Assembly: GCA_044237915.1 (NCBI GenBank)
Contig: JBIIEI010000012.1
Location: 15,360 to 79,359 of the forward strand
DNA: 64,000 bases
Reading direction: 5' to 3'
DNA from: Silvanigrellaceae bacterium
GTDB lineage: Bacteria > Bdellovibrionota_B > Oligoflexia > Silvanigrellales > Silvanigrellaceae
Part shown: positions 60,529 through 64,000 of the stretch, piece by piece
Position numbering within the stretch: position 1 is the stretch's first letter
Layout: the number at the start of each line of letters is the position of its first letter
The notes under the pieces: model-generated
The model's input: the letters and a program-made list of their open reading frames with translations, nothing else
Told to the model about the DNA's origin: nothing
Databases searched by the model: none
Program-made: the position numbers and the translations under genes

Positions 60529-62436
60529 ATGTTTTATCGTAATCAAAGTCCTCATTCCTCAGATTTATCAACTCAGGGAGAAGGGAATCCCAGTTGGGAT
60601 CTCACGTCGATTTACACTCACTTTGAAGACCATAAAATAGATTCTGATTTTTTCGATGCCTATCGAGTCATCGAAGAAATAAAACATTCAAATAAAGTGC
60701 TGATTTCGGGAATTGAAAATGGAGATCTCCAAAATTCAGAGCTCGCAGCGGAGTTCACCAGCTTAGTTACCCAAACGTACCTGAAAGTGGACAAATTGAT
60801 CACACTTGCAGATCTCTTTTACCACTATGCTTCCATGCATCTTTCAACCGATGGAAACAACAGCGAGGCAAAGGCTCTCCGCATCAAAGCGCTTTCACTC
60901 TTGACCATTATCGAAGAGGAAAAGGTTCCCCTTAAAATGGCGCTCACAAGAGCACCAGATGCTTTTCTGGAACAATTGCTCTCCATCCCCGAAATGAAAC
61001 CGTTTAAATTTGATGTGCAGAGGCAAAGACAAGTTCGCGAGAATCTCTTGACCCTTCAAGAGGAACGCCTCCTGGCTTCGTTCTCAGATTCAGGCCATCA
61101 GGCTTGGGGAATTCTTTATACTAGCTTGGCCTCATCCATCCGCTGCACACTTCGTGTGCCAGAAAAGGCAGAACAAGAGGTGAGCCTCGCAGAAGCCAGT
61201 CAATACCTTTATGGAGGCAATGAGCCCCTGCGCAAAGCAGCTTGGACCGCCATCAATAAGGGTTGGGGCCAGCATCGAGAAACCTGCGCAGCCATCCTGA
61301 ATGCCTTGGCAGACTGGCGCATTACGGAAGATAAAAAACGCTCTCACACAAAAACTGTCCACTTTTTAGATGCAGCACTCCTTGAGAACAGATTGAGCCG
61401 CGAAACCCTTGAGGCCATGTTCTCGGTTGTTGCTCAGGCGAAAGAACTCGGACAAAAATTCAATCGATTGAGAGCCCGCATTCTGGGCAAAGAAAAACTC
61501 GATCCCTGGGATCTCCAGGCCGCCCCACCTGCTCGATTAAACAAAGCAACAAATCAAACATACTCTTTTAGCGAAGCCATAGAGATCATCAAAAAACCAC
61601 TTCAAAAGATAGATCCAGAATTCCCACAATTTATTGATACCCTGTGCCAGAAAAAATGGATTGAAACAGGAACGACAGGCGCACGAAGTGCAGGGGCGTA
61701 TTGCGTTCTACTGTCCCATATTGGTCAGACGCGAGTTTATATTCCCTTTCAAGGGGGACTCGGACACATCAAAACCCTTGCTCACGAATTGGGTCATGCC
61801 TTTCACAACAGCACGGTATTTGACCTTCCAACGATTGAACAGATTTATCCGAATACTCTTGCAGAGACCGCAAGCATGTTTATGGAAACAACGGTGCTCA
61901 AAGACCTCATTTCGCAAGAAGTCGATCTGTCCGAGCGTTTAAAAATGTGCTGGACAGAAGCCGAAATGGCCACCACCAATCTTTTGAATATCCCAAGCCG
62001 TTTTTACTTTGAATCCAAACTGTATGAGCAAAAGAATTCGAAAAGTTATTCTCCTGATGAACTCAGCACCATGATGAAAAATGTGTGGGAAGAATGGTAT
62101 GGCGACACCCTCACACAAATGGATGACATGCTCTGGTGCAGTAAACTACATTTCTACAAAACATATCAAAGATTCTACAACTTCCCCTACACGTTTGGGT
62201 ATCTGTTTAGTCTTGCACTTGTCGACCTCCAAGAAAAAAAACCAGAAGAATTCTTCCCCCGCTTCAAAGACCTGCTCAAAAATACAGGCCGCATGACAGT
62301 CGAAGAACTGGTGAGTTTACACCTTGGAGAAGACACCACGTCAACCTCCTTTTGGCAGAAGAGCATTACCATACTTGAAAAGAAAGCCGATGTTTTTGAA
62401 CAGTCCATAGATGCCTGGCTTGCATTAAATTCTTGA
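60529..62436 (+). CDS. pepF: Oligoendopeptidase F (M3B family)
   Basis: HEXXH zinc motif (AHELGHAFH) in M3 context; GGAGGA RBS before ATG 60529. Confidence 0.85.
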   Translation: MFYRNQSPHSSDLSTQGEGNPSWDLTSIYTHFEDHKIDSDFFDAYRVIEEIKHSNKVLISGIENGDLQNSELAAEFTSLVTQTYLKVDKLITLADLFYHYASMHLSTDGNNSEAKALRIKALSLLTIIEEEKVPLKMALTRAPDAFLEQLLSIPEMKPFKFDVQRQRQVRENLLTLQEERLLASFSDSGHQAWGILYTSLASSIRCTLRVPEKAEQEVSLAEASQYLYGGNEPLRKAAWTAINKGWGQHRETCAAILNALADWRITEDKKRSHTKTVHFLDAALLENRLSRETLEAMFSVVAQAKELGQKFNRLRARILGKEKLDPWDLQAAPPARLNKATNQTYSFSEAIEIIKKPLQKIDPEFPQFIDTLCQKKWIETGTTGARSAGAYCVLLSHIGQTRVYIPFQGGLGHIKTLAHELGHAFHNSTVFDLPTIEQIYPNTLAETASMFMETTVLKDLISQEVDLSERLKMCWTEAEMATTNLLNIPSRFYFESKLYEQKNSKSYSPDELSTMMKNVWEEWYGDTLTQMDDMLWCSKLHFYKTYQRFYNFPYTFGYLFSLALVDLQEKKPEEFFPRFKDLLKNTGRMTVEELVSLHLGEDTTSTSFWQKSITILEKKADVFEQSIDAWLALNS

Positions 62437-62651
62437 AGGGCATGACTTCAAATCTGACTTTCACTGTTCCAAGAGATCGTCATTGTAAAAAATTGTTCTC
62501 ACTCTCCAAAAAAATGTCCATCGACTTCTATTGGACTTCCCCTGCTAGAAAAAGCTCTTCTGGCAGAAGCTCCTGTTTCTCCCAGTTCCCGCGAAATTTT
62601 TCCTACTGTCCCAAGCCAAGAAATTAAAAGTTTTGCTCCTCTTGCAAATAA

Positions 62652-62948
62652 AAACACTTCCACGCAAATATTGCCAAACGGGTATTAGATGGTGCTGTTC
62701 CTTCAAAAGCTGGAAATGGCACTGGCCCTACACGGAAGTATGACAAGGACGGAGGGCAAGAGGCAAAAGACAGAGATTTCGAAAAAATAGATGGAACGGC
62801 AGTAGAAGTAAAAGAGGGAGTTTGGGTTAAAACTTTGCCAGATGGAACGAAAGTGGTATCGAGAAACTGGTCAACTGAGGACGGCAAACCTACGTTCGAA
62901 ATTCAGCCTCCCGAAGGCAAAGAAAGAATAAAAATAAGGTATCATTAG
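62652..62948 (+). pseudogene. Start-less 99-codon open frame: possible 3' remnant of a toxin-like gene, translationally coupled to the next gene
   Basis: Frame 0 is open from the TAA at 62649 to the TAG at 62946, with no ATG/GTG/TTG in the first 61 codons. Translation is protein-like (…GTGPTRKYDKDGGQEAKDRDFEKIDGTAVEVKEGVWVKTLPDGTKVVSRNWSTEDGKPTFEIQ…KIRYH). The stop is 1 nt before the ATG of 62950. Confidence 0.25.
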
Positions 62949-62949
62949 G

Positions 62950-63375
62950 ATGTTTAAACCTTGGCCAACTCCATTTGAAAATGAAAAACACCTCGTTGTG
63001 GACGGAATTATTCAGCTTGATTGCAAAATTTATTTCGTACTCTGTTCAGATGAAAAAAATTATCTTATAGAATCTAAAAGAAAGTATCCTTATCGCATTA
63101 TGGATGAATCATACGCTTACATAAAGGATGAAATAGAAGAAGGATACATCGCAAGAACAAAAAGCTCAGTTGCGGAGGACTCGGCTTTTTTACAACTCCT
63201 TTGCAGCAATGCAATTTTTAATTCGGAGCATCAAAATAATCCTTTTAAGCATTATTTGATACGAGCATCGGATGAAGTTATTAATTTAGTATCAGACGAA
63301 GAACCCCTCGTTTCGATTTTTTCCGATCCAACGGGTGAGTTTTTGCGTAATCTTATTTTACGTAACAAATTTTAA
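62950..63375 (+). CDS. Small cytoplasmic hypothetical protein, paralog A (immunity-protein-like)
   Basis: 141 aa; AT-rich; shares PWxTxFxNEK, PYRIMDxSYAY, AEDSxF, NPFKHY and LVS motifs with the adjacent gene. Confidence 0.55.
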   Translation: MFKPWPTPFENEKHLVVDGIIQLDCKIYFVLCSDEKNYLIESKRKYPYRIMDESYAYIKDEIEEGYIARTKSSVAEDSAFLQLLCSNAIFNSEHQNNPFKHYLIRASDEVINLVSDEEPLVSIFSDPTGEFLRNLILRNKF

Positions 63376-63404: not shown

Positions 63405-63842
63405 ATGAATATCTTTAATCCTTGGAAAACATTGTTTTCAAATGAAAAAAATCTACAAGTTGATGCGGTTTTACAGTTTGGATATCACCTCAATATCGTT
63501 CTTAAATCTGGAGAAACTAGGTATCATATAGAATCGAACAGACGTCATCCGTATCGCATCATGGATAAATCCTATGCATATTTAGGTGCAGAAAATGAAG
63601 AGGGCCGCAATACTACCACAAATTGCTCATTTGCAGAGGATTCCGTTTTCATAAAATTGCTCAGTAGCGATCCCATGTTTAGCATGGAACATGAAGACAA
63701 CCCTTTTAAGCATTATGTAATCAAAACTCAAGATGAGATCATAGATTTGGTTTCAAATGACGCACCTGTTGTTACCATACTTACCGAGTCAACAGAAAAT
63801 TTTTTGTGCCAACTTCTATTGATAAATGAGAATTTAGATTAG
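63405..63842 (+). CDS. Small cytoplasmic hypothetical protein, paralog B (immunity-protein-like)
   Basis: 145 aa; roughly 40-45% identical by eye to paralog A along its full length; same AT-rich context. Confidence 0.55.
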   Translation: MNIFNPWKTLFSNEKNLQVDAVLQFGYHLNIVLKSGETRYHIESNRRHPYRIMDKSYAYLGAENEEGRNTTTNCSFAEDSVFIKLLSSDPMFSMEHEDNPFKHYVIKTQDEIIDLVSNDAPVVTILTESTENFLCQLLLINENLD

Positions 63843-64000
63843 GGTACTGAGGTGCAAAATTGTGCTGCAAGGAGAACTTTATGAAAACTGAAGTCATGAC
63901 ACCACCAGCAGAGCTGGTGGTTTGAATTCGTGAACCGCTCAAAGCGGTTTATTGGGAGTCGCAATTCTTGCGACGTGATTTGTTACCTCTGCTTACGCAG

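Follow-up and report, generated by a model that had tools for sequence, protein, structure and literature searches.

An open frame without a start codon lies immediately ahead of two small paralogous genes in a 64,000-nucleotide stretch of DNA from a Silvanigrellaceae bacterium (assembly GCA_044237915.1, contig JBIIEI010000012.1; hereafter the window). The locus raises the question of what this frame encodes and how it came to stand there without a beginning. The frame runs through 98 sense codons to a TAG (62946-62948), it is preceded by in-frame stops at 62625-62627 and 62649-62651, and a start-codon scan found its earliest ATG, GTG or TTG to be the TTG at 62835, codon 62. After the TAG comes a single G and then the ATG (62950) of a 141-amino-acid open reading frame, which is followed by its 50%-identical paralogue. 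Thus, the arrangement from which the original prediction started, namely a frame lacking a usable start for about 60 codons and bounded upstream by stops, with its own stop 1 nt ahead of a tandem pair of small paralogues, is indeed present. That prediction also called the region AT-rich relative to pepF, the gene that stops at 62436 upstream of the remnant. This applies to the two small genes, with a GC content of 34-35%, but not to the remnant, whose 44% is close to the values for pepF (45%) and the window (46%). Neither Rfam nor tRNA scans of the region gave a hit. The features discussed below are collected in the table.

Table. Features of the locus, in window coordinates.
Feature	Position	Strand	Basis and remarks
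5' toxin-gene remnant (predicted)	62458..62679	+	Own frame, phased on 62458; tblastn, hmmsearch, start-codon scan
Start-less frame	62652-62948	+	Translation and homologues; predicted complete C-terminal toxin domain at about 62676-62945
Deletion junction (proposed)	62679..62680	+	Identity to the open-frame allele L008 begins at 62680; profile gap at positions ~87-411
Putative immunity gene 1 (imm1), 141 aa, intact	62950-63375	+	Homologues directly behind the toxin domain elsewhere
Putative immunity gene 2 (imm2), 145 aa, intact	63405-63842	+	Paralogue of imm1
Terminator-like hairpin with T-rich tail	63958-63974	+	Consensus match; the sole one predicted from pepF to the window end

Homologues of the start-less frame

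The translated frame was compared with 1.84 billion representative proteins using phmmer, which returned 217 proteins at E≤1e-3, the best of them (P0002) at E 1.2e-27 with 71% identity. The frame is therefore protein-like, as had been claimed, and not open by chance. Among the best 150 of these 217 homologues, whose lengths range from 75 to 2,997 aa, the match ends no more than 17 residues from the C-terminus in 145. The long carriers include CdiA-type proteins (ESPR and TPS domains with haemagglutinin repeats; PT-VENN), and the domain is also carried by Rhs/SpvB/TcdB-type proteins, by PT-HINT proteins and by a family of about 500 aa of lipoprotein type. Since C-terminal placement on diverse carriers is the defining signature of polymorphic toxins, the frame is predicted from its homologues to encode a polymorphic-toxin C-terminal domain. 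The original prediction had proposed such a module from gene arrangement, and the homologues that end CdiA, Rhs and PT-HINT proteins bear it out; the opposite outcome that it had considered, a translation without homology to the C-terminal regions of larger proteins, is not what was found.

The domain matches no curated family, and the original prediction had assigned it to no known toxin family either. Pfam and NCBIfam scans returned nothing for the fragment, for either small gene or for a 64-aa open reading frame upstream, and a Pfam scan of 60 fragment homologues taken one by one at E≤1 gave scattered single matches only. A sequence search of the PDB with the domain profile produced nothing useful, and no teneurin sequence similarity was detected in it. 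No candidates came from a word-indexed protein search with the fragment, and the corresponding profile search returned short proteins only; a scan of genome contigs with the fragment gave no match and a plasmid DNA search found nothing, while scanning metagenomes with the toxin alignment gave three loci. In annotated records, the toxin domain is found at the end of a haemagglutinin-repeat protein on a Duffyella gerundensis plasmid and also on Enterococcus raffinosus megaplasmids. The Duffyella protein (plasmid pEM02, L013 1114-3633) has 708 aa, a short and possibly truncated CdiA, and is followed by a 128-aa hypothetical gene within an integrative conjugative element region.

Conservation within the family was analysed in an alignment of 60 sequences (A1), in which G34, G65, R96 and Y97 are invariant and G35, D42, F43, R71, P80, T81, E83, Q85 and K94 are conserved in more than 90%. 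Every one of these residues is kept in the window fragment, which indicates that the toxin domain is complete. The closest homologue is itself in poor condition. P0002 (337 aa; L002 289-4337) is 5'-truncated relative to the ~500-aa family, beginning at about residue 167 of P0033, a full-length member; its gene starts 45 nt after a Tn3-family transposase gene and is followed by its putative immunity gene. P0002 is thus another damaged copy of the toxin gene.

Putative immunity genes and their transcription

The two small genes are clear paralogues of each other (50% identity, E 2e-50), and the family of the first co-occurs with the toxin domain at five other loci. An imm1 homologue directly follows P0002 in L002 (33% identity, E 1e-9), another follows P0033 in L010 (hhalign probability 95.8%, E 8e-9) and a third follows the toxin in L006 (E 0.003), the last two with an ATGA overlap. 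In P0137, an imm1-family sequence is fused to the toxin domain by a gene-calling or sequence error, and in L008 a 99%-identical imm1 variant stands behind the toxin domain, with the start of imm2 also present. Behind a more distant toxin, in L007, the downstream gene is unrelated, as expected for polymorphic systems. Because the linkage to the toxin domain is conserved, we take imm1 and imm2 to be putative immunity genes, and imm1 is probably cognate to the toxin whose domain precedes it. The original prediction had assigned them the same role from position, and the recurrence of the family behind the toxin domain at independent loci (L002, L006, L010, P0137 and L008) adds weight to that assignment. 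Apart from its own 99% variant, imm1 retrieved no protein in a word-indexed search, scanning metagenomes with the immunity alignment gave no match, and the predicted model of the immunity protein was poor (pLDDT 49).

While imm2 has a good ribosome-binding site of its own (AAGGTG), imm1 has only a weak one when it is no longer translationally coupled to the toxin frame. No terminator-like site was predicted between pepF and 63958, which makes read-through from pepF the simplest source of transcription for both genes. The hairpin at that position may terminate a transcript comprising pepF, the remnant and the immunity genes. The interval 63871-63974 holds a 14-codon open reading frame (ATG at 63881; MKTEVMTPPAELVV*) behind a perfect AAGGAG ribosome-binding site, and after it come two hairpins, CCGCTCAAAGCGG, and GTCGCAATTCTTGCGAC with a T-rich tail. 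These elements could form a leader or attenuator for downstream sequence, or simply the terminator of the immunity genes.

An upstream remnant, a junction and an open-frame allele

We searched the whole window by tblastn with the 150 homologues as queries, and one match was unexpected: residues 45-81 of P0033 aligned with 62539-62649, in a frame other than that of the toxin domain, with 54% identity (E 1.3e-6). P0033 is a 522-aa protein with the same toxin domain as the fragment. It is one of seven proteins (with P0102, P0047, P0063, P0083, P0020 and P0077) of 460-550 aa that are similar over their whole length and all end in the toxin domain, and from which a full-length profile was built. 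These relatives are laid out as a lipoprotein-type signal peptide, an uncharacterised carrier region of about 350 aa, a hydrophobic stretch, a helical linker (HDELEKP..GILDG) and then the ~85-aa toxin domain; lipoprotein-type signal peptides are present in three of the seven. P0033, P0102 and P0047 (L010-L012) share LL[CSG]SC signal peptides, a conserved GDYxIPVMTFCM motif and the hydrophobic stretch before the toxin domain. No match to the ~500-aa carrier family was found in Pfam, NCBIfam or PDB sequences (P0033 being the query for the PDB), and the family may be an undescribed toxin delivery module.

The profile was then run against all translated stretches of 15 codons or more without a stop, in all six frames of the 64-kb window. 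Positions 39-86 matched about 62539-62682 (E 2.6e-5) and positions 412-505 matched 62676-62942 (E 1.4e-23), and positions 87-411 had no match in any of these stretches. Both ends of one gene are therefore present, collinear, on the same strand and in different frames, and they abut at 62679|62680. The family matched by these remnants has no TPS domain, haemagglutinin repeats or VENN motif, and the window toxin gene itself is neither a CdiA nor an Rhs gene. Two further open reading frames overlap the remnant, one of 64 aa (62433-62627, + strand) and one of 54 aa on the antisense strand (62499-62663, - strand; present in the JGI record); neither has homologues and both were treated as spurious.

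The upstream frame begins 22 nt past the pepF stop and ends at a TAG (62686-62688), three codons beyond the junction, as follows from the joint being out of frame (-1). It contains no ATG, GTG or TTG other than a TTG five codons before its stop, and no recognisable signal peptide. The lack of both implies a second lesion or a different 5' structure: either the 5' end was lost by a second lesion, or this lineage has a 5' end unlike that of its distant relatives. The same relatives (29-36% identity) are the guide to where the left breakpoint would lie, to the microhomology and to the start codon that the gene once had.

The right-hand side of the junction could be placed to the nucleotide with the help of a 1,335-bp metagenome contig (L008, ENA ERZ28614158), the one that carries the 99% imm1 variant. 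Its toxin frame is open for all 804 nt covered, or 267 codons, and aligns with the profile at positions 234-505 (E 4e-78). Over the 269 nt from 62680 (GGGTATTAGATGG...) to the TAG, contig and window do not differ at any base (100% identity), and upstream of 62680 only 13 of 60 bases are identical, which is chance level. In the 531 nt past the TAG there are six SNPs, four synonymous and two non-synonymous, a pattern compatible with constraint on the immunity genes and too sparse to prove it. With just two profile matches in the window and identity to L008 setting in at 62680, the remnants point to an internal deletion of about 325 codons. We conclude that the toxin gene was very probably destroyed by an internal, out-of-frame deletion while the immunity genes were retained. 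The deletion appears to be recent, because the 269 nt from junction to stop are free of substitutions where about three would be expected at the rate of the immunity genes.

The following history would account for these remnants. The ancestor would have had a gene for a ~500-aa secreted toxin just after pepF, followed by two paralogous immunity genes. A single internal deletion would then have removed the part corresponding to profile positions ~87-411, starting right behind the N-G that is conserved near residue 86 and ending at the Gly before VLDG, where the toxin domain begins. The joint would lie at a GGG; at the left edge the family consensus is [DN]-G, the right edge is a run of G, and a deletion via GGG microhomology is plausible. 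The toxin domain would thereby have been put in the -1 frame and left as a start-less open frame, and the cell would no longer be able to make the toxin. Imm1 and imm2, probably transcribed by read-through from pepF, would most likely guard the cell against kin that still deploy it. What the sequences show directly is the homology, the junction, the existence of an open-frame allele and the linkage between toxin and immunity genes; immunity function, expression, toxin activity and the selective rationale are what we infer here.

The original prediction had instead regarded the frame as what is left of a toxin tip displaced by recombination, as in orphan cassettes: a new CT-immunity cassette would have displaced an older tip, now a start-less spare for recombination. 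The perfect preservation of the start-less frame and the immunity genes next to it suit this reading, and L008 could be the main toxin gene. Against it, there is neither a toxin gene nor a cassette upstream: the remnant starts directly after pepF and the toxin-family profile finds nothing else in 64 kb. In addition, the 5' flank corresponds to residues ~39-86 of the same toxin family and not to a pre-toxin region, and in the near-identical allele L008 the frame runs open through the middle region of the toxin. Homology to L008 also ends about nine codons into the open frame, which leaves no upstream homology arm for recombination. We consider an orphan cassette improbable, and the claim of a displaced tip is better replaced by that of an internally deleted gene.

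Could the fragment still be expressed, by a -1 frameshift in the overlap of the two frames (62652-62685) or from a non-canonical or internal start, as a small toxin or a regulator? The toxin domain is complete, its frame is -1 relative to the upstream frame, and a slippery-like T AAA AAC lies at 62648-62654, where the TAA of the toxin frame would be bypassed. However, the upstream frame itself has no ATG, GTG or TTG from which to start, and the overlap is a deletion scar missing from the open-frame allele and so cannot be a conserved recoding site; a programmed -1 frameshift was rejected on these two grounds. From the only internal starts, TTG 62835 and GTG 62853, no peptide longer than 37 aa could be made, and it would lack G34-G35, D42-F43 and G65; a cytoplasmic toxin without export would only burden the cell. 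We give next to no credence to an expressed fragment.

A metagenomic source, together with the existence of an open-frame allele with an identical 3' end, also raises the possibility that the deletion arose in assembly or binning and that the organism itself has an intact gene, whose reads were collapsed or mis-joined. Seven public contigs of 20-200 kb, however, encode identical pepF, imm1 and imm2 proteins and carry largely the same neighbouring genes, which makes the junction unlikely to be a one-off assembly error. One of them (L001) agrees with the window at every base over 11,051 nt, and it is in this contig alone of the seven that the junction was read. Moreover, the two sides of the junction share no repeat that could cause a collapse (13/60 bases identical). 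An artefact therefore seems highly unlikely, and an internal deletion is the reading that we retain.

The allele in L008 may be the pepF-linked copy of a sister strain or else a paralogue at another place in the same genome. The original prediction had suggested looking for a full-length toxin elsewhere in the genome or an intact one at this position in homologous genomes; the L008 frame is open over 267 codons, and the 1,335-bp contig stops short of the neighbours of the locus. All seven public contigs end about 174 nt after imm2 (window 63843-64000; L001 to about 64016), which suggests a repeat boundary or a second copy just outside the window and, by leaving room for a repeat or another copy, also suits an orphan cassette. 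Were there a second copy, the one beside pepF would serve as a spare immunity locus, with a structure that is still that of an internally deleted gene. The locus is very probably a toxin pseudogene with retained immunity, lacking recombinase or mobile-element context in the window.

Possible activity and relation to known systems

RelE and colicin E5 are RNase toxins that act without histidine. Together with the CdiA-CT in PDB 5T86 they are examples of the BECR-fold RNase toxins; the likeness of the present toxin domain to such histidine-free toxins is our own reading. An AlphaFold2 model built on alignment A1 (pLDDT 91.5, pTM 0.82) has a helix followed by beta-alpha-beta-beta-beta-beta-beta. 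In the model, the last three strands carry the conserved Arg, Glu, Gln, Lys, Arg and Tyr at alternating positions, which would place them on one face of the sheet. It is possible, as a tentative proposal drawn from this model, that the toxin is a histidine-free RNase with R71, E83, Q85, K94, R96 and Y97 on that face.

A Foldseek search of the PDB with the toxin-domain model gave no match at E≤0.001; teneurins were listed above that threshold. [quoted passage not shown] The two differ in that no sequence similarity is detectable between them, and in that the ABD of teneurins is followed by a Tox-GHH nuclease domain, while the present domain stands at the end of its proteins and has conserved polar residues. 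That the ~85-aa domain represents an undescribed toxin fold family homologous to the teneurin ABD, and the ~500-aa carrier a new delivery platform, is a speculative and rather unlikely proposal. If true, the 'antibiotic-binding-like' domain of teneurins would have a toxin module, rather than an antibiotic-binding protein, as its ancestor.

The locus shares with the polymorphic toxin systems (Zhang et al. 2012, PMC3482391; CdiA-CT/CdiI, Rhs-CT/RhsI) a short, variable toxin domain that forms the very C-terminus of secreted carriers not otherwise related to one another, and an immunity gene that starts either next to the toxin stop (TAG-G-ATG here) or overlapping it (ATGA in L006 and L010). Unlike in CdiA-CT and Rhs-CT systems, the window carrier is an unannotated ~500-aa family of lipoprotein type, and neither the toxin nor the immunity domain has a match among curated families. 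The toxin-domain family, the immunity family, the ~500-aa carrier and a structural relationship that the toxin domain may have to a teneurin domain are all undescribed; the three families are widespread in metagenomes and found in cultured Duffyella and Enterococcus. For the biology of polymorphic toxins, toxin loss with kept immunity is an ordinary fate and nothing conceptually new.

Poole and colleagues are said to have described, in 2011, orphan cdiA-CT/cdiI and rhs-CT/rhsI modules that lie downstream of the main pair and keep a pre-toxin stretch. As in those modules, a start-less 3' fragment of a toxin gene is followed here by intact immunity genes. In contrast to them, what precedes the fragment is the N-terminal end of its own gene, joined to it by the proposed internal deletion, and next upstream comes a housekeeping gene; a pre-toxin homology arm is likewise missing, identity to L008 setting in where the toxin domain begins.

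Acquired interbacterial defence clusters in Bacteroidales reportedly carry orphan immunity genes without a toxin (Ross and co-workers, 2019). The window locus resembles them in that immunity is kept, and probably useful, without the toxin, and in having two paralogues in tandem. It differs from those clusters in lacking recombinase or mobile-element surroundings, and in that what is left of the toxin gene can still be seen, the identical open-frame allele marking its loss as recent. The deletion is found in one population, while another sequence has the toxin frame open with an identical 3' end, a genotype that would be expected for a cell that drops the cost of a weapon and stays protected from kin that keep it. 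The locus thus shows toxin loss with immunity retention at single-nucleotide resolution.
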